64,000 nucleotides of DNA, from assembly GCA_000165345.1 (NCBI GenBank), contig CM000429.1, forward strand, positions 32,001-96,000, read 5' to 3'. The notes below the pieces were generated by a model. The model saw nothing but the letters and a program-made list of their open reading frames with translations. It was not told the origin of the DNA and ran no database searches. Below are positions 838 through 43,469 of this stretch, piece by piece. Numbering within the stretch: position 1 is the stretch's first letter; every line of letters begins with the position of its first letter. The position numbers and the translations under genes were made by a program.

Positions 838-3729
838 ATGAAATTTGATACAAAAGTATCACTTTTTGTATTATTTTCTTTGTCATTATTTTCAGTACTG
901 AGCTCAGCAAATATACCAAACGATGACGGGGAAGATAATCCAAAAAATGTAGAAAAAAGTATAATTAATAAATTCTCTGGATTAAATTTAAATGTATTTG
1001 AAGCTGAATTCTGTATAGAGATACTGATACAAATGATGCTTATAATTTATACATTCATATTGAGATGCAATGCGGTATTTAATCCTGAAGAAAGTATTGA
1101 ATCTGTCAGTAAATTAAAATTAATTCTTCTTTATATAGACAAACATTCACGATTTTCTGACAAAAAGAAAATGATATCTCCAAGTAGATTAAAAGGTATT
1201 AATGAAGCACTCAAATATTTAATAGAAACAGATTTAATGTACCAAATGGAGAATTCTTCGAAACTTGACGCATCCATTTTTGTAGTTTTAAGCGAAAGGC
1301 TAAACGAAATAACTTCAACATTGGAAATATTGAGTGAATTGTTGAAACTAATGATTATTAAAAAAGTTCATTTCGGTTATAACGTTATAGCAAAAAAAAT
1401 GATTTCTTTTCTTAGTAAATATCGTTTATTACTCAAAAGGTCGTTTGATTTGTACAAAAAAATGTCCAAAAGTAAATTTTTGCAACAATATGAAACAACG
1501 AAAGAAGTAGTTTGTACCATTTCTATTAATTTAGCTCATGGAATAAATCTACTTGAACCGGTTGAAAAATTATTGGATAATTATAATAAAAAATTGATTT
1601 TGCAAAATTCAACTGGAGTAAAAACGTCAGGTAGTAATAGATCAAGTGAAAAAAAGAAAAACGACTCAAATGAAAGAAACAAACAAAAATTATCAAAAAA
1701 TTCTGAGTTAAGTGAATACACATTCAAGATTGAAGTTATGATTAACTTCTCCTTTGAAGCTATTCTATTTGCAATTGAAAATTTTTTCTTTTTTAAAAAT
1801 GGTATTGCAAAAAAATCACTCTTGAAACATTTTGAAGTTTATGATAAAATACAACAAGAAATGTTTGCTAGATCGACAGAACTGTTACTTACAGAGGAGA
1901 AAGCATATGAAATTAAAGTAAAAGTTAGACAATTTTTGGATTTTGATTCATTATTGCAAACTGATAATTCTGTATTTTCATTCAACGGACCATTAAATAA
2001 AAGAACAATTATAGAAAAATTTACGAAATTAGTTGAAAGATTGAAAATATTATTGCTTTATTTAAAACAGGAAATAATAGGTAAAAGTTCCAGCTCATAT
2101 GAATATTTTTTATTACACAATACAATTATTTATTTAGAAGAAACAACATTAGATTTAGAGAGTGCTATTGTATTATTTGAACGCTATGAAATTGATCACT
2201 TACTTAAATTTCTAAACAGAAACAGTATGGAATTTTTAGCAAGTGCAAGAAAGTCCATGGTTGAAAGCTCAACAAGTAAAGGATTGCATACAAGTAAGAA
2301 GATGAAACCGGGTAGATTTAAAAATATTGAAAGTGTTTGCGCAACATCGAGCGTTCCCATTAATGAGAATGATCAAGTTGATCTTACGAGTAAAGCAACT
2401 GGTTCATCAAAAACTAAAAAGAGCAAGTCCATGAGAAAGCAGTTGAAAATGGAATTATTATTGTCTCAAGAAGAAGCTTCGGAAAAAAAATCGGCCATTA
2501 GTGAAACCATCAAAGAACAAAAAATGAGCAATCAAAAGCAATCAAAAAGAGATAAAATTCTGAATCGTGCAGAAAAATGGAAAAAAAAGAGAGAGAAGGA
2601 AGAAGATGAAAGAAGAAAGGAAAGAGAAGAAGAAGCAAAGAAGAAAAAGGAAAAAGAAGAAAAAGTTGAGCTTTGTCGTCTTGTAAGAGTCGTGACTAAA
2701 ATTGAACAAAATTTTGAAGCCGTAAATGAGGAGATTCAAATGAGAGAAAGTCTCCAGTCATTATTTTTGAATGTGTTTAATTTATTATCCCACTTAACTG
2801 AATCTGAAAATACTCGAAATGATAGAGAAAAAAGCCTGAATCAAATCTTTGAAGGTGGCACCTTAGCTTCAGCAAGTCTTGAAGAAAATAAACCTAGCCA
2901 GCCGCCTGTTGCAACTCAAAGCACTACAAGTTTTGTGGGAAGAAGCAAAGTTGGTAAAAGAAGAGCAGATGAAACTCATAAAAAACCTTTGGCAGCTTCA
3001 ACATTGGATCTAATTGCGAAAAGCAGAACTACTAATGAGTCAAGTGGTGGCAGATCTCTAAGTTTTAGTATAGACTCAGGTGAAACAAAGAGTTTAGAAA
3101 CTACACAAGCTGAGAGCGGAGACAAACTTAGAAGCAAGAGTAAGGAACATAGCAAAACTCATAGTCATAGTAGGAGTAGGAGTACTAGGAGCAGAACTGG
3201 AAGCAGAGGTAGAAGCAAAAGCAGAAGCAAAAGCAGAAGCAGAAGAGGTAGAAGCAGAAGCAGAAGAGGTAGAAGCAGAAGTAGAAGCAGAAGTGGAAGT
3301 AGTGGAAGAAAAAGCGAACACAATTTTGACTATGAAAGTGGATATTCTTTTGAAATACCTTTAACTGAAGCAGAGGATATTGATAGCACAAAAAATATTG
3401 AATCAAAGTTATTAAAGCTATTTTCAAGTTTTGAATCAAATACGTCTGAAGATTCCACTCAAACAGAAAAAAGTAAGGAACAGTTTCTTTTTAGTTTCTT
3501 TGGTATAAAAAGATTTGATTATTCAAAAATTACATCAGAAACTTCAACTTCTGAATTAGAAACAGCGATTTCGGACATTAGTTGTGAGCTTGAAAGAATA
3601 TATAAAGACGTCATTCCATTGTTAACAGGAGAAGACTATGAAATAGTCAAAAATTTTGAAAAATTTATGATCAAAGAACTAATCAAATTGCTAATAATGT
3701 TAAACAATGTTTCAGAAAAATATAAATAG
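838..3729 (+). CDS. Large secreted protein, paralog A of a tandem family (963 aa). It has a signal peptide, an alpha-helical N-terminal domain, a K/E-rich charged linker, an RS/SKSR dipeptide repeat and a conserved C-terminal helix.
   Basis: The ORF opens with ATG at 838 and continues unbroken. The N-terminus MKFDTKVSLFVLFSLSLFSVLSSA looks like a signal peptide. The charged block is KWKKKREKEEDERRKEREEEAKKKKEKEEK. The repeat SRSRSTRSRTGSRGRSKSRSKSRSRRGRSRSRRGRSRSRSRSGSS is encoded by (AGCAGA/AGAAGC)n at about 3170-3310. The C-terminal motif ERIYKDVIPLLTGEDYEIVKNFEKFMIKELIKLLIMLNN is shared with the proteins at 7482 and 10940. I recognise no enzymatic domain. Confidence 0.8.
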   Translation: MKFDTKVSLFVLFSLSLFSVLSSANIPNDDGEDNPKNVEKSIINKFSGLNLNVFEAEFCIEILIQMMLIIYTFILRCNAVFNPEESIESVSKLKLILLYIDKHSRFSDKKKMISPSRLKGINEALKYLIETDLMYQMENSSKLDASIFVVLSERLNEITSTLEILSELLKLMIIKKVHFGYNVIAKKMISFLSKYRLLLKRSFDLYKKMSKSKFLQQYETTKEVVCTISINLAHGINLLEPVEKLLDNYNKKLILQNSTGVKTSGSNRSSEKKKNDSNERNKQKLSKNSELSEYTFKIEVMINFSFEAILFAIENFFFFKNGIAKKSLLKHFEVYDKIQQEMFARSTELLLTEEKAYEIKVKVRQFLDFDSLLQTDNSVFSFNGPLNKRTIIEKFTKLVERLKILLLYLKQEIIGKSSSSYEYFLLHNTIIYLEETTLDLESAIVLFERYEIDHLLKFLNRNSMEFLASARKSMVESSTSKGLHTSKKMKPGRFKNIESVCATSSVPINENDQVDLTSKATGSSKTKKSKSMRKQLKMELLLSQEEASEKKSAISETIKEQKMSNQKQSKRDKILNRAEKWKKKREKEEDERRKEREEEAKKKKEKEEKVELCRLVRVVTKIEQNFEAVNEEIQMRESLQSLFLNVFNLLSHLTESENTRNDREKSLNQIFEGGTLASASLEENKPSQPPVATQSTTSFVGRSKVGKRRADETHKKPLAASTLDLIAKSRTTNESSGGRSLSFSIDSGETKSLETTQAESGDKLRSKSKEHSKTHSHSRSRSTRSRTGSRGRSKSRSKSRSRRGRSRSRRGRSRSRSRSGSSGRKSEHNFDYESGYSFEIPLTEAEDIDSTKNIESKLLKLFSSFESNTSEDSTQTEKSKEQFLFSFFGIKRFDYSKITSETSTSELETAISDISCELERIYKDVIPLLTGEDYEIVKNFEKFMIKELIKLLIMLNNVSEKYK
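3170..3310 (+). repeat. Coding hexanucleotide microsatellite (AGCAGA / AGAAGC / AGAGGT)n that encodes the RS/SKSR repeat of paralog A.
   Basis: The run agcagaagcaaaagcagaagcaaaagcagaagcagaagaggtagaagcagaagcagaagaggtagaagcagaagtagaagcagaagtggaagtagtggaag is visible directly. The minus-strand ORFs 3094-3321 and 3185-3439 are the antisense low-complexity echo of it. Confidence 0.85.
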
Positions 3730-7481: not shown

Positions 7482-10469
7482 ATGAAAAATAAACATATTT
7501 TTTTAAATATTTTAGTAATTGCCACCTTTTTATTAACTTTAATAGTAGAAGGAGCTGAGTTTAATGAAAAAAGTGGTTCTAAAGAAAATATAGGCCAAAT
7601 TCAGAAAGAAACATTAAGCCAGGAGAGTTTGGCTTTATTAACTCTGGTATCCAATACATATGAGCGGAATTGTTTAGTTGACATAATTGTTAAGCTACTA
7701 TTTTCTTATTCCGCTTTACTACTTAAGTTTTCATATTTTTTCAATGAAAATGTTCTTCATGAGCAAATAAAAAGATTGAGAGAAACGATTTTTCACGCAA
7801 ATTTAGAGTCGTTCTTTATTAACAAATATTTGCTAATAGACTATAAAAAGTTGGAACATATGTATAACAGTTGCTTTGATTATTTAAGATATAGTACAAT
7901 TAACCAATTAAATACCGAGTCATTAAATCAGCAGTATGCATTTATTATGAATATAGTTGAAAATCATGCCGAAATAATAAAACCAATAAGAGAATCTCAA
8001 GCATTACTTGAATATTTAATTTCTTGTGATTTAGATTCAAGTCTTAAATCAATGGTTTCAATACTAATTAATTATGTTTCCGAATTTATTAGTTTGGTAG
8101 AAGAATCTATAAAATCTTACAAAAAAAAGAAAAGAAATTTTAAGAAATTTTTTGATTCAAGAAAAGATTTTTTGAGCAAAGCTAATATCGACTTGGTGGT
8201 TTCTAATCAAAAATTACAGATTATGATGGAGATGAAAGTTAATTTTGAAACAAACAAAGTATTATTAGAAGAATATAATACATTTTTGGAAAATCCGGAT
8301 CAAAATTTAACCGAAGAAAAGGCTTCTCAACTTAAACAACTATATAATGATTATTATGAAAATAATGAATGTACCGAAGAAGAAATATTAGAAATGGAAT
8401 CTTTATTATCAATATCTATGGAATTATTGGGACTAATATCTGCCAACATGTTTTATTTTAATAATCAGGAGCTATCAGAAAATATAAGACTAGTTGAAGA
8501 AGCCATTTCAAATATTAATAAAAAGATTTCGACAAGAGGCACTGAAAATAATTTTGATGTAGAAGACAGTTTCAGAATAAAGAAAAGAGTAATGGAAAAT
8601 TTGGACTATGAAAAAGTAATAAGCTTAAATAATTTATCTTCCAAGTTTAGTAATAAATTATCTAGAGACGTAATAATTAAAAATCTTAAAGGCCTCTATT
8701 TATGTTTATTAAACATCTTGAAGATGTTAAAAAAAGAATTTCAATTAAATAAATGTGGCAAATATATTCAAGAGCTAATGCTTTTGGTTATCAATACTTA
8801 TGAAAAAATAGGAAAAGAATGCGCAGCATCTTTAAAATCAAATGAAAAGAACGAGAGTCTAACAATTTTACCTTTAGAAACTATTCGCGTTATAAGAGAA
8901 AGTACTATATCTAAATGTAAACAAATAATAACTGAGCAGGTAGAGAAAAAAAAGGAGAAAATGAAAGAAGAAAAAGAAAAACAAGAAAAGCTTGAAGCGG
9001 AGAAAAAAATACAATTAGAACAAGAGAAGTTGGAATATAAGAAAAGACTTGAGAAGCTGAAAGAAAGAAGTAAATCAAAACAAAAAAAATCATATCCTGA
9101 GGTTAAATATGAGATAAAAAAAGTACAAGAGTGTGATTCTATAATATTAGAAACTCAAAAAATGATTAGGCCTACTGTTAGAAATAAGGCTGAAAGAAGA
9201 AGAAGGTTGATGGAAGAGATAAATAGGTTTAATGAAAAATCAATAAAAAAAGAACTAATAAGAGAAGCGGTTAATAGACAAAGATTAACAAGAAAATCTA
9301 AAAAAAATTTAAGTTCAGGTGAAAGGAGATCTAAATCGCATTCAATGGAAATGAATAATGCCCAAACAAAAGATCAGATTACACATAGTATTGATATAGG
9401 AAGTGATTCAAGCCAAAATTCTTCTAATGAATCAAGTGGTGATGAAGAGACTTGTTCATCTGATGTTAAAAAGAAAAAACATGTAAAAAAAAAGGACTTT
9501 AGCAAATGTTTGTTACCCGTGATTAAACTCGTAGAGGATTCTATTAATGAAAGTAATAAATCACACCAACAAAGCAAAGGAGAAGGCATAAGTGAAGAAT
9601 CCGAGGGTGCTTGTTCAAGTCATGTAACAGAAAAAAGAGTTTCCAAAAAAAGACTTGCAAATGAAAAACCCGGTGATACCCCATTGGTCAAAAGTACTGT
9701 TGAATTATTTGGCGAATCATTTGTTTTTGAAACAAGAAAAGTTGGTCAAAGAGGAGCTATGGAAGGAACTGCAAAGAGCTCTTCCTTACGTGAAACTTCG
9801 AATTCCCCCTCTTCTGTTTCACAAATAGAAAGTATAACCGATAAACAATTATTTGGAAAACAATCAAACTCAGAAGCTCGAAAATCAAGATCTGGAGCAA
9901 AAAGCAGTAAATTATTTGTAAGAAGAGCTTTATCTGAGCCTCCTCTGAGAAATAAGCCAAGTTCAAATTTGAAAACTAGGGCAAAATCTATTCCAAGAAC
10001 TAGATCCAGATCCAGATCCAGATCTAGAAAAAGAAGAAAGTCAACATCTCGTTCAAAGCTGCATTTAAAATCTGAAATTTATTCAGATGATGCGACTTCA
10101 GAAATGATTTCAAAGTTAATACAGCTAGAAGAAAGAATGTCTTATTCTGTAGATGATTCACCTGGGTATAAATCCAAATTTATTCCTATGTTTTCAAAAT
10201 CAAAAGTAGCTGAAGAAGCACAATCCGTTGATATTTTCAGCTTTTTTAATATTGTTAATCTCGATTTTTTAGAAATCACAGAAGTTTCCACTATTGAAGA
10301 AATAGAAGCTGCCATCGAATTTTGCAGTGAAGAGATTACTCGCATTCATACTGAAATCCTACCGCTATTGACAGGCTGTGATCTAATTCAAATGAAAAAC
10401 TTTCAAAAGGATCTAATAAGCCGATTAATTAGATTACTTATTATGTTTAATAATAAAAAGAATGAATAA
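7482..10469 (+). CDS. Large secreted protein, paralog B (995 aa). Architecture matches paralog A: signal peptide, helical N-domain, K/E coiled linker, RS repeat and conserved C-terminal helix.
   Basis: ATG sits at 7482. The signal peptide is MKNKHIFLNILVIATFLLTLIVEGA. The linker is EKKKEKMKEEKEKQEKLEAEKKIQLEQEKLEYKKRLEKLKERSK. The RS repeat IPRTRSRSRSRSRKRRKSTSRSK is encoded by (AGATCC)n at about 10003-10030. The C-terminus ITRIHTEILPLLTGCDLIQMKNFQKDLISRLIRLLIMFNN aligns with paralog A. The N-domain segment LLGLISANMFYF and STRGTEN matches FLGLAAMNLSLL and NSRGTEI in paralog C. Confidence 0.8.
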   Translation: MKNKHIFLNILVIATFLLTLIVEGAEFNEKSGSKENIGQIQKETLSQESLALLTLVSNTYERNCLVDIIVKLLFSYSALLLKFSYFFNENVLHEQIKRLRETIFHANLESFFINKYLLIDYKKLEHMYNSCFDYLRYSTINQLNTESLNQQYAFIMNIVENHAEIIKPIRESQALLEYLISCDLDSSLKSMVSILINYVSEFISLVEESIKSYKKKKRNFKKFFDSRKDFLSKANIDLVVSNQKLQIMMEMKVNFETNKVLLEEYNTFLENPDQNLTEEKASQLKQLYNDYYENNECTEEEILEMESLLSISMELLGLISANMFYFNNQELSENIRLVEEAISNINKKISTRGTENNFDVEDSFRIKKRVMENLDYEKVISLNNLSSKFSNKLSRDVIIKNLKGLYLCLLNILKMLKKEFQLNKCGKYIQELMLLVINTYEKIGKECAASLKSNEKNESLTILPLETIRVIRESTISKCKQIITEQVEKKKEKMKEEKEKQEKLEAEKKIQLEQEKLEYKKRLEKLKERSKSKQKKSYPEVKYEIKKVQECDSIILETQKMIRPTVRNKAERRRRLMEEINRFNEKSIKKELIREAVNRQRLTRKSKKNLSSGERRSKSHSMEMNNAQTKDQITHSIDIGSDSSQNSSNESSGDEETCSSDVKKKKHVKKKDFSKCLLPVIKLVEDSINESNKSHQQSKGEGISEESEGACSSHVTEKRVSKKRLANEKPGDTPLVKSTVELFGESFVFETRKVGQRGAMEGTAKSSSLRETSNSPSSVSQIESITDKQLFGKQSNSEARKSRSGAKSSKLFVRRALSEPPLRNKPSSNLKTRAKSIPRTRSRSRSRSRKRRKSTSRSKLHLKSEIYSDDATSEMISKLIQLEERMSYSVDDSPGYKSKFIPMFSKSKVAEEAQSVDIFSFFNIVNLDFLEITEVSTIEEIEAAIEFCSEEITRIHTEILPLLTGCDLIQMKNFQKDLISRLIRLLIMFNNKKNE
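10003..10030 (+). repeat. Short coding (AGATCC)n microsatellite that encodes the RSRSRS stretch of paralog B.
   Basis: The run agatccagatccagatccagatctag is visible directly. Confidence 0.7.
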
Positions 10470-28999: not shown

Positions 29000-30499
29000 C
29001 TATTTGATTGTTTTCTTATTATCCGATGGAATTTTATTCTTTGACATTAAAACTTTGAGCTTTCTCTCACGAGCCTCTTGATTCTTCTCATTAAATCCAA
29101 TTTCCTCCAACATTAGCAAGGCCTTCTGCTGAGCAACAGTAACCCTATTCATATTTTTCAGTACTTCATCCTCATCTAGCTTTAAAAGCTCCATTTCTTT
29201 TTTCATTTTGCTCTCAAATTCATATACATAGGGCACATCTTGTTCTGTTACAAAAGTAAGAGAAATACCTGTTTTATTCGCACGGCCAACCCTACCAATT
29301 CTATGGATATAATCTTCAAAAGATCTTGGAAAATCATAATTAATGACAAACTCTACATCAGGTATATCCAAACCTCTTGCAGCAACACCGGTGGCAACTA
29401 ATAACTTGCTCGTTTTACTCCTAAACTTTCCAAGAGAAGCAAGCCTTCTTCTTTGATTCATCAAACTATGTAATCCTGTAACAGAGTATCCCATTATTTC
29501 TAGGCAGCTTGTTAGCATTTGACATTGTTGTTTTGTAGCAGTGAAAATTATTCCTTGTTTTATTATCTTATTTTGATCAATAACTTGTTCTTGCTTCTTT
29601 ATAAATTTTTTCTTGTTTTTGGTGCCAAATGTTACATTTTCGTCAACATCCTCCTGAGAATCCTCAAAAAAAGTTGAATTTTTCTCGAATTTTGCTTTAT
29701 CAACAGAATCAATGTTAAAGAAATGAACATTGGATAGAATATAATGTAAATATACAAGTCTAACTCTATGATTCAGAAACAAATACATCTGTCTAATCTT
29801 CTCAACAGGTGAGTCGTCCGGGTTTTCGTTCACAATTATCATCGGAAGTTCTTGAGGTTTCTTTCCTTTCATTTCTTTGGGGGCAGTAGAATAATTGTTT
29901 ACGATCTCTTTAATGGCATTTGTTAACGTAGCAGAGAAAAGCAAAGTCTGGCGTCCAGTACATGACTTTGGAAGAATAGACAATATAGGAAGCATATCAT
30001 CTTCAAGAGATTCGCTCAACAGTCTATCAGCTTCATCCAAAACGAGAAATCTCAAATTTCTCAAAAGATCACTTATATTGCTCCCCGGGTACGAAATGAT
30101 CGATGACAACCTTCCTGGAGTTCCTATTAATATATGAGGTCGCTTCTGATTTAATATATGTATCTGTTCAGATTCGTCAAATCCTCCAGTCAAAACTTGA
30201 CAATTTGCATTTACCTTATTACCAAACACCTGAAATTGATCTAATACCTGATATGACAATTCTCTTGAAGGAACTAGAACAAGACCAAATACTGAAAATG
30301 GATCCTCTGCCAGAATTTGAAGTATCGGTAAGCAATAACATAAAGTTTTTCCGCTTCCAGTTGGAGCATTTCCTACAACATTCCTTCCTTTTAGTATATA
30401 TGGAATACTTTTGGACTGAATTGCCGTTGGAGTTCGAATTTTCAACGAGTCACATGTATCTTGGACCCATTTGTGAAGTCCTAAGTTCAAAAATTCCAT
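29000..30499 (-). CDS. DEAD-box ATP-dependent RNA helicase, DDX49/Dbp8-like.
   Basis: The Q-motif and motif I are TPTAIQSKSIPYILKGRNVVGNAPTGSGKT. It has DEAD (LVLDEADRLL), SAT (FSATLT), ARGLD and HRIGRVGRA motifs. The N-terminus LGLHKWVQDTCDSLKIRTPTAIQ...LPILQILAEDPFSVFGLVLVPSRELSYQV aligns with Dbp8/DDX49. The track ORF starts at a TTG at 30529, and the first ATG is at 30499. Confidence 0.9.
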   Translation of the reverse strand: MEFLNLGLHKWVQDTCDSLKIRTPTAIQSKSIPYILKGRNVVGNAPTGSGKTLCYCLPILQILAEDPFSVFGLVLVPSRELSYQVLDQFQVFGNKVNANCQVLTGGFDESEQIHILNQKRPHILIGTPGRLSSIISYPGSNISDLLRNLRFLVLDEADRLLSESLEDDMLPILSILPKSCTGRQTLLFSATLTNAIKEIVNNYSTAPKEMKGKKPQELPMIIVNENPDDSPVEKIRQMYLFLNHRVRLVYLHYILSNVHFFNIDSVDKAKFEKNSTFFEDSQEDVDENVTFGTKNKKKFIKKQEQVIDQNKIIKQGIIFTATKQQCQMLTSCLEIMGYSVTGLHSLMNQRRRLASLGKFRSKTSKLLVATGVAARGLDIPDVEFVINYDFPRSFEDYIHRIGRVGRANKTGISLTFVTEQDVPYVYEFESKMKKEMELLKLDEDEVLKNMNRVTVAQQKALLMLEEIGFNEKNQEARERKLKVLMSKNKIPSDNKKTIK

Positions 30500-30768
30500 T
30501 TCTTCATAATAATTAATAATACTTAGCAAGATTTACTAATTTACTACGATAAATCTATTTTCTCTCGAAATTTGACCTTTCAAATTTTGGCGCCAAAATT
30601 TGAATTTGTATTTATGTAATGAAAGTTCATTACAGTTTTGCATGTAAAAGTAGTTGTTCAAGCTAATGGAATTCATTTTCTATTAAGAATTAAATTTGAT
30701 TTAGTATGAGCAATAATTTTTATTAGAAATATCTTTTAAGATTTTGAAATTTAAATTTACCTATTAAG

Positions 30769-32154
30769 TTAAGCTTGATTTATAAAGAATTTAGGATTTC
30801 CTATGCTCCAACTAGAACTATTCGTTTTTGAAAATCGGCTGATATTACTGGCACTGCATAGTATTTGGCCAAATACCCAATTTTCTTCAAATTTAATTCC
30901 GTTTCTCTTTCTTCCGTAAATCTCAATTCCGCAACTCTTTTGGTCATTGCCATTATTAATTACGAAGTTACTCAAATCAATTGAGTATGAATTTGCATTA
31001 TTGTATAATTTAATGCTGAGCTTATTATTCAGAAAATTACAGTCACATAAAATAGTTTTTCCCAAAATTGTTTCTCGAGTTTCGCAGCTAAAACCCTTTT
31101 GAACTGCATACTTATTTAAAATTGTATATAATTGTAATAGCCTAATTTCTGGTATGATTGCTCCATATATATTTAAGTTTATGCTAAATTTAACATTAAA
31201 TTTAGATTTTACTTCTTTGTCTATCATTACTTTAACTATGGAGCCAGATTCTTCATTTGATAACAATTTTTCATATTTTGAAGATTCTCCTCCATTTTCA
31301 TTATAAATTGCAAATATCAAGGAGTCTTCATTTTTATTTGCTCTGTTTTTATCCCCAAGCCTACTACATTGAAAGGACATAATATATCTACCTTTAGAAG
31401 GTTCCATAGCTTTCGATGCTGTTTCAAAAATTCCAACTCCTTGGATTGAGTTATCATTTAATCCAATAATTCCATCAATTTTATTTTCAACTATGAACTT
31501 GTACATATTCTGAGAAAACAATTTAGATTTAAAAAAAGGAACCTCAATCAGAAGTTCTGAAACTTTTATCTTAGAATGTAAGCTTTTTTGAAGTATCTTA
31601 ATTTTATCTTTTTTCCCAACTGCAAAGCATCTATTCACAATATTAGAATGATTTTTTGATAATAAATTGTTATCCCAAATCCAAAACCCAATTTTTGAGA
31701 AGTTCAACATCAGTCTAAGAACATTTCCATTTTCCAATTTAAGTTTTAATGTTCGAATTATTGTCTTTCGTTTTTCTTTACTACTTCCTATATTAGTTTT
31801 CTCTTGACAAAATAAAACATTTCTTGTATTATCATCCTTTTGAAAAGTAGTTCTATTATCAACTAAAATTACTGGATTATTAAGTAAGTTAAAGATATCT
31901 TCATCTATTTCACAAGGTTTAGACTCTATATTATAATTCATTATATTACTGAAAATTTCTCCATCTCTCTCACTCTTTTTTTTTAAATGTAAAAGTGTTT
32001 CCATAAAAAACCCGTATTTATAGCTTTCTAAGCTATTATGATTTTCAAAGAAATGCCAAGATGGTGGGAATTCTATTTCATTAAGGTTTCCAGACGAATT
32101 TAGACAATGTGTTTTTAATATTATTAATACAAAAGTCAAAAATAATAAACTCAT
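30769..32154 (-). CDS. Secreted pepsin-like (A1 aspartyl protease fold) protein whose two catalytic motifs are both degenerate. It is probably a non-catalytic pseudoprotease.
   Basis: It has a signal peptide, MSLLFLTFVLIILKTHC. Pepsin-fold landmarks are IDGIIGLNDNSIQG (compare FDGILGL), the C-lobe pattern FNVKFSINLNIYGAIIPEI...FSCE...WVFGQILC, and conserved cysteines. The expected DTGSS and DTGTS sites read ILVDNRTTF and NIYGAII. Confidence 0.55.
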   Translation of the reverse strand: MSLLFLTFVLIILKTHCLNSSGNLNEIEFPPSWHFFENHNSLESYKYGFFMETLLHLKKKSERDGEIFSNIMNYNIESKPCEIDEDIFNLLNNPVILVDNRTTFQKDDNTRNVLFCQEKTNIGSSKEKRKTIIRTLKLKLENGNVLRLMLNFSKIGFWIWDNNLLSKNHSNIVNRCFAVGKKDKIKILQKSLHSKIKVSELLIEVPFFKSKLFSQNMYKFIVENKIDGIIGLNDNSIQGVGIFETASKAMEPSKGRYIMSFQCSRLGDKNRANKNEDSLIFAIYNENGGESSKYEKLLSNEESGSIVKVMIDKEVKSKFNVKFSINLNIYGAIIPEIRLLQLYTILNKYAVQKGFSCETRETILGKTILCDCNFLNNKLSIKLYNNANSYSIDLSNFVINNGNDQKSCGIEIYGRKRNGIKFEENWVFGQILCSASNISRFSKTNSSSWSIGNPKFFINQA

Positions 32155-32564
32155 TGATTAGCAACTACAATAAATGATTGATTACCAAAAAAAACTATCT
32201 AGCTCATATTATTAACTTAAATCGTAAAGTTAAATAAAAATTAAATTTATGCAATTTATTATCACTTTTACCTAAAGTATGCTCTATTTCTCGAGTTCAA
32301 TTCTCAACTTTATAATAAGTTGCGTTTTGCATGCAAATTATTAAACTAGACAAAAAATAAGTGTTTCAAAGCAAATTAAATACTGTGTGATGTCAGCATT
32401 GCATTTAAAAGTAAAAAATCTCTTTGGTAAATCTTCAATTATTACTTCGCAAAATTATCTGTAATAATTTCCAATGCTAAGATCAAATTAATATTGGCGC
32501 CAAAATCTCAATGCATATTTTAATATTCAAGAATAATACTGCTTAAAAAACTTTTTTTTCCATA

Positions 32565-33364
32565 ATGGGTAGGAAAAAAAGGAAGATAGCTGAAATCAAA
32601 CCATTTTGTTACTATTGTAACCGCGAGTTTGGAGATGAAAAGGTTTTGAAACAGCACCAAAAAGTGAGACATTTGAAATGCTTACACTGCAGTAGAAAGC
32701 TTTCAACTGTTTCTGGATTAATTGTTCACATGCTACAGGTAAGTTGGAATTTTAAATCTTCAAAAATTTATAGCTAAGATTGATGAATTAATTCATCCCA
32801 ATATTTTAGGTCCACAAAGAGACTTTATCTAGAATTCCAAATGCCATTCCTGGACGTGACATTCCGGATATTGTAATTAATGGTATGAAAGGAGTACCTT
32901 CTGAATTAATAGAAGAAAGAATAAAGAAACAGAATGTGGAAATAGATATACAAAAAAATCTAAAAAGTTATAATCCTCATGGAAATAAGATGATGGCATT
33001 AATGAACGAGGTTGCGACAAATTTTGTTAAGGAACACAGTAAGTTTAAATTCAGTAATTACTTAGAATTTTAAATCCTCAAAAATTAAACTTCAGATCTA
33101 GGGGATATACGCGTTCCAGGAATGTATGGAGGCCCAGAATTCATCTTTGGAGCAATGCTTCCCTTCCCAAATCAAAAACCAATCCCAGGTGTAATGGTTC
33201 AAAGGGAGAATGAGAATTTGGGGAAAACATCAAAAAATTACGAGCTCATAATGGTCCTAGAAGATTCAGATACTTCTCCGGAGGAATTGTATGCATCAAA
33301 ACTATTTTCTTACAAGATAATTAGAAAGCATGCACCAATTAATATTTCGCTTATTAAAAAGTAA
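32565..33364 (+). CDS. ZNF207: ZNF207/BuGZ-type C2H2 zinc-finger protein, three exons: join(32565..32738, 32810..33038, 33096..33364).
   Basis: MGRKKRKIAEIKPFCYYCNREFGDEKVLKQHQKVRHLKCLHCSRKLSTVSGLIVHMLQ is followed by a GTAAGT donor. Exon 2 is VHKETLSRIPNAIPGRDIPDIVINGMKGVPSELIEERIKK. Together they match the human ZNF207 N-terminus (MGRKKKK..KPWCWYCNRDFDDEKILIQHQKAKHFKC...VHKETIDAVPNAIPGR) almost residue for residue. A second, 57-bp intron with GTAAGT and TTCAG is phase 1 and joins the in-frame ORF at 33122-33364. Confidence 0.85.

Positions 33365-41006: not shown

Positions 41007-43469
<2,463 letters not shown>

Follow-up and report, generated by a model that had tools for sequence, protein, structure and literature searches.

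We analysed a 64,000-nucleotide stretch of chromosome 1 of Cryptosporidium parvum (assembly GCA_000165345.1, contig CM000429.1, positions 32,001 to 96,000 of the forward strand; hereafter the window) and report that one of its genes, cgd1_260, very likely encodes a non-catalytic, genus-restricted homolog of the pepsin-family proteases (MEROPS A1). A pepsin fold was recovered by structure prediction, the core motifs of this fold follow one another with the expected order and spacing in both lobes, and neither of the two catalytic Asp-Thr/Ser-Gly triads is present. Transcripts of the gene appear with the female gamete, and neither sporozoites nor asexual stages express it.

A preliminary description of the window, made from the sequence alone, had drawn attention to this open reading frame (ORF), which proved to be intact and intron-less, with 461 codons plus a stop on the minus strand. 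Its product is identical to EAK88524.1 / CPATCC_000408 of C. parvum Iowa II, and the source annotation describes it only as 'predicted secreted protein, signal peptide'. On chromosome 1 the locus is found ~68 kb in from the left end, and the window is AT-rich (~30% GC). The identifier cgd1_260 was assigned from gene order and from the published identifiers of its neighbours, namely PIG-K (cgd1_220) and ALG2 (cgd1_230) (PMC9713705), CDC48 (cgd1_330) (PMC12604037) and SDR (cgd1_280), the last of these from a supplement in which cgd1_260 itself is entered as 'Signal peptide region containing protein' (PMC6877471). Pseudogene status was ruled out by an unbroken reading frame, by its conservation and by its expression.

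Family and predicted fold

Homolog searches assembled a family of 14 sequences, all of them from Cryptosporidium; an initial set of 10 was joined by two new clusters from a hidden Markov model (HMM) scan and subsequently by C. ryanae from a profile search. The HMM scan, which covered 1.84 billion cluster representatives, retrieved four clusters, all belonging to Cryptosporidium, the new ones being those of C. bovis and of C. muris/C. andersoni, and it yielded no bridge to active A1 proteases at E<=1e-3. The word-indexed profile search added C. ryanae and nothing else. Identity within the family falls to 28-30%, and 33 positions, including eight cysteines, are invariant across its 14 members.

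In Pfam, the C. parvum protein finds no PF00026 match even at E<=10, and among PDB sequences no relevant match was obtained either with the protein alone (phmmer) or with an 11-sequence profile (hmmsearch). The orthologs of C. bovis and C. ryanae score 14.5 and 14.9 bits against PF00026, both below the gathering threshold of 19.9; in both cases the match follows the C-lobe part of the profile collinearly, and that of C. bovis begins at the relic of the C-lobe psi-loop described below. The automatic UniRef name 'Peptidase A1 domain-containing protein' is carried by the orthologs of C. hominis, C. muris and C. andersoni. For comparison of profiles, bona fide A1 proteins were gathered with the exact PDB sequences of pepsin and plasmepsin II. 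Against this reference the 14-member family aligned collinearly over both lobes in hhalign (E 0.039, probability 1.3%). When the lobes were taken separately, the N-lobe scored 21.3 against a column-shuffle null of 13.6+/-1.8 and the C-lobe 24.4 against 14.5+/-2.5, and none of 60 shuffles reached the observed value in either case; at full length, where the probability is low, one of 60 shuffles scored higher. A pepsin-biased local HMM gave marginal matches only, every time at the same two motifs, and the A1 signature [FILVM]DG[IVL][FILVM]G[ILVM] occurs a single time in the six frames of the window, inside cgd1_260.

For structure prediction with AlphaFold the input alignment was kept free of true A1 sequences in order to avoid circularity. 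The first model, built from 11 sequences, was poor, with a predicted local distance difference test score (pLDDT) of 42, and although about 40 of its 50 Foldseek matches were A1 proteins, this enrichment was not significant. Addition of the three divergent orthologs raised the mean pLDDT to 54, with a predicted template modelling score (pTM) of 0.50 and values mostly between 70 and 90 over residues 70-250. Searched with Foldseek against 350,542 chains, this 14-sequence model returned 68 matches at E<=1e-3, and all 50 among the matches listed are A1 proteins; the best is plasmepsin I (8e-7), and the alignments cover 330-440 columns. A second structural search, of 48,164 chains, likewise had exclusively A1 proteins as its top matches. 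As far as a predicted model can, these searches settle that the cgd1_260 protein has the bilobal pepsin fold; they assigned no different fold, and the preliminary claim of pepsin kinship is upheld. That the resemblance arose by chance in an unrelated fold could be argued from the missing Pfam and PDB sequence matches, from hhalign probabilities of 1-4% and from the low confidence of the modelled C-lobe. Such a coincidence is nevertheless extremely improbable, given that two structural methods place solely A1 proteins at the top of the 48,164 and 350,542 chains, that the order and spacing of the motifs are collinear in both lobes and exceed the shuffle nulls, and that the A1 signature motif is unique within the window.

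Relics of the catalytic sites

In the N-lobe, hhalign and the order of strands in the model align L148-M149-L150-N151-F152-S153-K154-I155-G156-F157-W158-I159-W160 to the DTGSSNLWV region of pepsin (V29 to P), W158 matching pepsin W39 and S153 matching G34. This segment is the most confident part of the model (pLDDT 79-88), and F152, G156 and W158 are invariant in the family. At the Asp32 position the ungapped register puts N151, while the hhalign register deletes D32-T33; neither offers an Asp, and the family residue at this position is N, S, I or V. The Asp32-Thr/Ser-Gly triad is accordingly missing, in a register of low confidence with no Asp nearby. The preliminary description had located the lost DTGSS at ILVDNRTTF, ~50 residues away from this psi-loop. 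Since both hhalign and the family alignment place the psi-loop at residues 148-160, ILVDNRTTF is not part of it; the model has a strand at residues 94-98 followed by a low-confidence loop, and residue 99, the Asp of this stretch, is unconserved (D/E/F/G/Y/V).

As a separate observation, N151-F152-S153 (window 31693-31701, minus strand) forms an N-glycosylation sequon in C. parvum, one that is not conserved because the site reads S-F-S in C. tyzzeri, C. canis and one further intestinal-clade sequence (P0006).

In the C-lobe, S324-I-N326-L-N328-I-Y-G-A-I-I-P335 aligns to pepsin I-V-D215-T-G-T-S-L-L-T-G-P224, with N326 equivalent to Asp215, L327 to Thr216, N328 to Gly217 and P335 to Pro224, and with the same D215-to-P224 spacing in both proteins. 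The C. parvum protein thus has N326-L327-N328 in place of the Asp215-Thr/Ser-Gly triad, and the site suggested earlier for DTGTS, NIYGAII, falls 2-3 residues downstream of the true one. An Asp at the D215 position is found in C. bovis (VVVDLGLFGAEIP, DLG), C. ryanae (IVIDLSLFG, DLS) and chipmunk genotype I (SLDLNIYG, DLN); as read from the alignment, it is a relic of the ancestral triad.

Other landmarks of the fold are unevenly kept. The flap has V179 where pepsin has Tyr75 (V/I/L/K/E family-wide), and G180, aligned to pepsin Gly76, is invariant. Both hydrophobic-hydrophobic-Gly motifs are present, the FDGILGL type as IDGIIGL (226-232), with D227, G228 and G231 invariant, and the ILGD type as WVFGQ (426-430) within WVFGQILC (426-433), with W426, F428, G429 and C433 invariant; for both, hhalign reproduces the register proposed in the preliminary description, including the equation of WVFGQILC with the WILGD-type end of pepsin. 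The pepsin-like cysteine pattern proposed there stands in one part only: C370 and C408, which are invariant, align to the C249-C282 disulfide in a poorly modelled C-lobe, and the other two of the three pepsin disulfides are unmatched. Six further invariant cysteines (116, 176, 263, 357, 372 and 433) are specific to the family.

Neither the C. parvum protein nor any parvum-clade ortholog contains D[TS]G anywhere, and a D-T/S-G pair at homologous positions is absent from all 14 sequences; the DSG at C. felis 442, C. ryanae 143 and C. muris 29 are non-homologous singletons. The only Asp residues conserved family-wide are D227, which belongs to the structural FDG motif, and D371. No alternative alignment restores a canonical pair, and the loss of both catalytic Asp motifs that had been read from the single sequence therefore holds. 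It extends to the rest of the family, in which an Asp is retained at the C-lobe position alone, by the three orthologs named above. Of the two options put forward at that stage, a pseudoenzyme or a highly divergent active enzyme, the former is favoured, and the inaccurate placement of both dead sites does not affect this conclusion. The cgd1_260 protein is very probably a pseudoenzyme, and judging from its residues, peptide hydrolysis by the A1 mechanism would be impossible. With the fold and core motifs in place, and with the Pfam threshold, both triads and the flap Tyr all wanting, it belongs with the A1 non-peptidase homologs, having kept the A1 fold, lost the catalytic residues, and remained under selection and expressed.

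A divergent peptidase that works with non-canonical residues, in the manner of Plasmodium HAP (His32 + Asp215), would account for the presence of HAP structures among the Foldseek matches, for the D215-position Asp in C. bovis, C. ryanae and chipmunk genotype I, and for the Asn, isosteric with Asp, at both sites in C. parvum. We regard it as highly improbable, since nothing constrains the residue at D32 (N/S/I/V) and each triad has decayed: neither site has an Asp in C. parvum and most orthologs, the Thr/Ser-Gly that positions the Asp has gone from both, the flap Tyr is missing, and the conserved Asp residues are D227 and D371 only.

Several points weigh against the pseudoprotease reading. HAP is an A1 enzyme that works with one Asp, and three orthologs retain the C-lobe Asp. 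The N-lobe admits two registers, with N151 at D32 or with a deletion, and hhalign probabilities are 1-4% overall, so that residue-level placement is weakly supported. The C-lobe of the 14-sequence model is mostly below pLDDT 50, and global template modelling scores against the A1 matches reach only 0.2-0.3 as a result of the poor modelling of lobe packing and of the C-lobe; with a model of moderate confidence, the placement of residues depends on weak profile alignments. Secretion, localisation and inactivity are predicted properties, and the main text of papers in the literature searched makes no mention of cgd1_260.

Table 1. Features of cgd1_260, with positions in the window and residue numbers of the protein
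Feature	Residues	Position	Strand	Basis
Complete coding sequence of cgd1_260, predicted secreted pepsin-fold (MEROPS A1-like) pseudoprotease		30769..32154	-	ORF, exact protein match, gene order, fold search
Predicted signal peptide, MSLLFLTFVLIILKTHC	~1-17	32104..32154	-	hydrophobic N-terminus, source names
Segment of highest conservation in the family, E28-FPPSWHFFENHNSLESYKYGF-49	28-49	32008..32073	-	14-sequence alignment
ILVDNRTTF, short strand and loop upstream of N-lobe core	96-104	31843..31869	-	model, family columns, hhalign
N-lobe psi-loop relic, VLRLMLNFSKIGFWIW (pepsin FTVIFDTGSSNLWV)	145-160	31675..31722	-	hhalign, family columns
Flap hairpin relic, CFAVGKKD	176-183	31606..31629	-	hhalign, family columns
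IDGIIGL, A1 hydrophobic-hydrophobic-Gly motif (FDGILGL)	226-232	31459..31479	-	hhalign, family alignment, motif scan
C-lobe psi-loop relic, SINLNIYGAIIP (pepsin IVDTGTSLLTGP)	324-335	31150..31185	-	hhalign, ortholog columns
Segment with C370 and C408, aligned to pepsin C249-C282 disulfide		30931..31047	-	hhalign, invariance; disulfide inferred
WVFGQILC (pepsin WILGDVFI), C-lobe hydrophobic-hydrophobic-Gly motif	426-433	30856..30879	-	hhalign, family alignment, motif scan

Expression and proposed role

Expression values are those of the supplementary data to Tandel et al. 2019 (PMC6877471), given as log2 counts per million. In sorted cells cgd1_260 stands at 0.96 in asexual stages, 5.39 in females in vitro and 6.44 in females in vivo, with a log fold change of +4.43 (~22-fold) between female and asexual cells; in bulk samples it stands at 1.2-2.3 (~1.8) in sporozoites, -0.3 to -1.5 (~-0.8) at 24 h and ~5.9-6.0 at 48 h (PMC6877471). 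The asexual value of 0.96 probably represents the zero-count floor, because the four replicate values equal those of other rows, such as cgd8_990. The gene also appears in the three-species comparison of female/gametocyte genes (supplement file 6, group OG5_194885), and the same study describes 69 female-preferential genes, mostly with signal peptides and with a probable role in the oocyst wall, among them aspartic peptidases; in its supplement cgd1_3690, an active aspartyl protease of the membrane, ranks with the leading female genes (PMC6877471).

The N-terminus is hydrophobic and signal-peptide-like, as the preliminary description had noted and as the source names also state, and entry into the secretory pathway of females is likely. 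The protein would enter this pathway in the macrogamont and would serve there as a disulfide-stabilised, non-catalytic binding module. Its most plausible place is in the programme of the oocyst wall and wall-forming bodies, which it would join by binding a wall protein; alternatively, it would partner or regulate the active aspartic peptidases with which it is co-expressed. A specific binding role related to the oocyst wall is conceivable and somewhat doubtful, and that the link to the wall is guilt by co-expression only counts against it.

Two other functions were weighed against a role in oocyst development. As an inhibitor or decoy, the protein would block a host, microbial or parasite hydrolase after the fashion of TAXI-I, EDGP and basic 7S globulin/conglutin-gamma. 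We hold this to be unlikely: the differences in rank among the A1 matches are small and the model is imprecise, the plant group has no sequence relationship to cgd1_260, and expression restricted to females points to development more readily than to defence. As a surface or extracellular recognition factor of the female gamete, it would act in fertilisation, and the female-specific expression and the Cys-rich extracellular domain speak for it. The orthologs of C. muris and C. andersoni (597 aa) are, moreover, type I membrane proteins with a C-terminal transmembrane helix and a cytoplasmic tail of ~55 aa, which together lie in residues ~520-597 of the C. muris protein CMU_034930 (P0020). Recognition in fertilisation is all the same very improbable, as the intestinal species lack the anchor and the protein is not homologous to any gamete fusion or adhesion protein known.

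The helix and tail are missing from all intestinal-species orthologs, and the anchor may have been lost in the intestinal lineage, gained in the gastric lineage, or produced by fusion of gene models. A downstream exon encoding the helix was sought in C. parvum and ruled out, the 240-bp 3' intergenic region containing no ORF and hence no exon candidate.

The strongest conservation of the family lies outside the pepsin-like domain. Residues 28-49 (EFPPSWHFFENHNSLESYKYGF) have the top 15-mer conservation score (0.84) and are nearly invariant in the 14 sequences, C. muris included; they lie N-terminal to the fold, at the place of the prosegment of A1 zymogens, and AlphaFold models them with a confidence of ~25. 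In a more speculative proposal, which we consider quite improbable, this peptide, and not the dead cleft, would be the functional element. Because the cgd1_260 protein cannot self-activate, EFPPSWHFFENHNSLESYKYGF would be a permanently retained prosegment that plugs or gates the cleft, and while the macrogamete matures or is fertilised it would be released or give way to a ligand, as a zymogen-derived switch for oocyst-wall assembly or gamete recognition. Under such a switch the membrane-anchored gastric form could be ancestral, although the gastric species may just as well have acquired the anchor.

Transmission of Cryptosporidium depends on the female gamete making an environmentally resistant oocyst, and most female-specific secreted proteins are without an assigned fold or function. 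Assignment to the pepsin fold as a catalytically dead member gives cgd1_260 a structural identity, removes the gene as an aspartic-protease drug target, and makes it a candidate for binding or regulating the active aspartic peptidases that females express alongside it. The relic Asp of some species offers a view of stepwise loss of catalysis.

Surrounding sequence and comparison with known systems

Elsewhere in the window, three tandem ORFs of ~950 aa on the plus strand (838-3729, 7482-10469 and 10940-13741), without a Pfam domain, share a conserved C-terminal module of ~110 aa, in which the first ORF is 38% identical to the second (E 3e-17) and the second 26% identical to the third (E 6e-8). 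On sequence grounds, they are probably paralogs of a family specific to Cryptosporidium and situated on the left chromosome 1 arm. The palindrome TTGGCGCCAA, which we take to be an E2F-like promoter motif, occurs three times (30587-30596, 32494-32503 and 61064-61073) against 0.02 occurrences expected in the window; two copies flank cgd1_260, nearer to the starts of the neighbouring DEAD-box and zinc-finger genes. The DEAD-box ORF (29000-30529, minus strand) has 509 aa from a TTG start, and the annotated models start downstream (499 aa). On the other side, three short ORFs of 70, 62 and 80 aa (32565-33364, plus strand) all belong to a single spliced C2H2/jaz zinc-finger gene, whose models differ between assemblies (191 vs 223 aa). 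The CDC48 gene (cgd1_330; 41007-43451, minus strand) looks like that of an ordinary AAA ATPase, with CDC48_N, CDC48_2 and two AAA domains; a secretome paper of 2025 reported it among 'secreted' candidates for virulence (PMC12604037).

No apicomplexan A1 pseudoprotease is described in the literature searched. What is new here is the map of the dead sites, the relic Asp in some species, the transmembrane-anchored gastric form, the prosegment-like peptide and the link to female expression; as an A1 domain was already flagged by UniRef in three orthologs, whose names hint at the fold, the advance is incremental.

Compared with canonical MEROPS A1/PF00026 proteases (plasmepsins I, II and X, proteinase A and pepsin), the cgd1_260 protein is alike in fold, in the order and spacing of the psi-loop, flap, FDGILGL-type and ILGD-type motifs, in the equivalent of Trp39, in the C249-C282 disulfide by alignment, and in its signal peptide and an extension at the place of the prosegment. 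It differs in having neither Asp-Thr/Ser-Gly triad, no Tyr75 and a score below the Pfam threshold, as well as in its six extra invariant cysteines, an insertion that follows the first strand and precedes the N-lobe core, and its restriction to Cryptosporidium. With soybean basic 7S globulin/lupin conglutin-gamma, wheat TAXI-I/IIA, carrot EDGP and the cockroach allergen Bla g 2, which are among its best structural matches, it would share the character of a secreted, disulfide-rich, non-catalytic binder. These act in plant defence or storage or in the insect gut, whereas cgd1_260 is a gene of the parasite female gamete, and the absence of any sequence relationship to them suggests that activity was lost independently; Bla g 2 still has both Asp. 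HAP (plasmepsin III), a structural match, is likewise a protein of an apicomplexan that has the A1 fold and, at the N-lobe catalytic position, a non-canonical residue, but it retains Asp215 and is active, whereas the C. parvum protein has neither Asp.

A functional parallel, by analogy, is the papain-like SERA5 of P. falciparum, a pseudoprotease that acts as a negative regulator of egress (PMC8540915). Both would be secreted proteins that keep a protease fold without catalysis and regulate a developmental transition, a regulatory role that for cgd1_260 is hypothesised; SERA5 belongs to another fold and clan and shares no homology with it.
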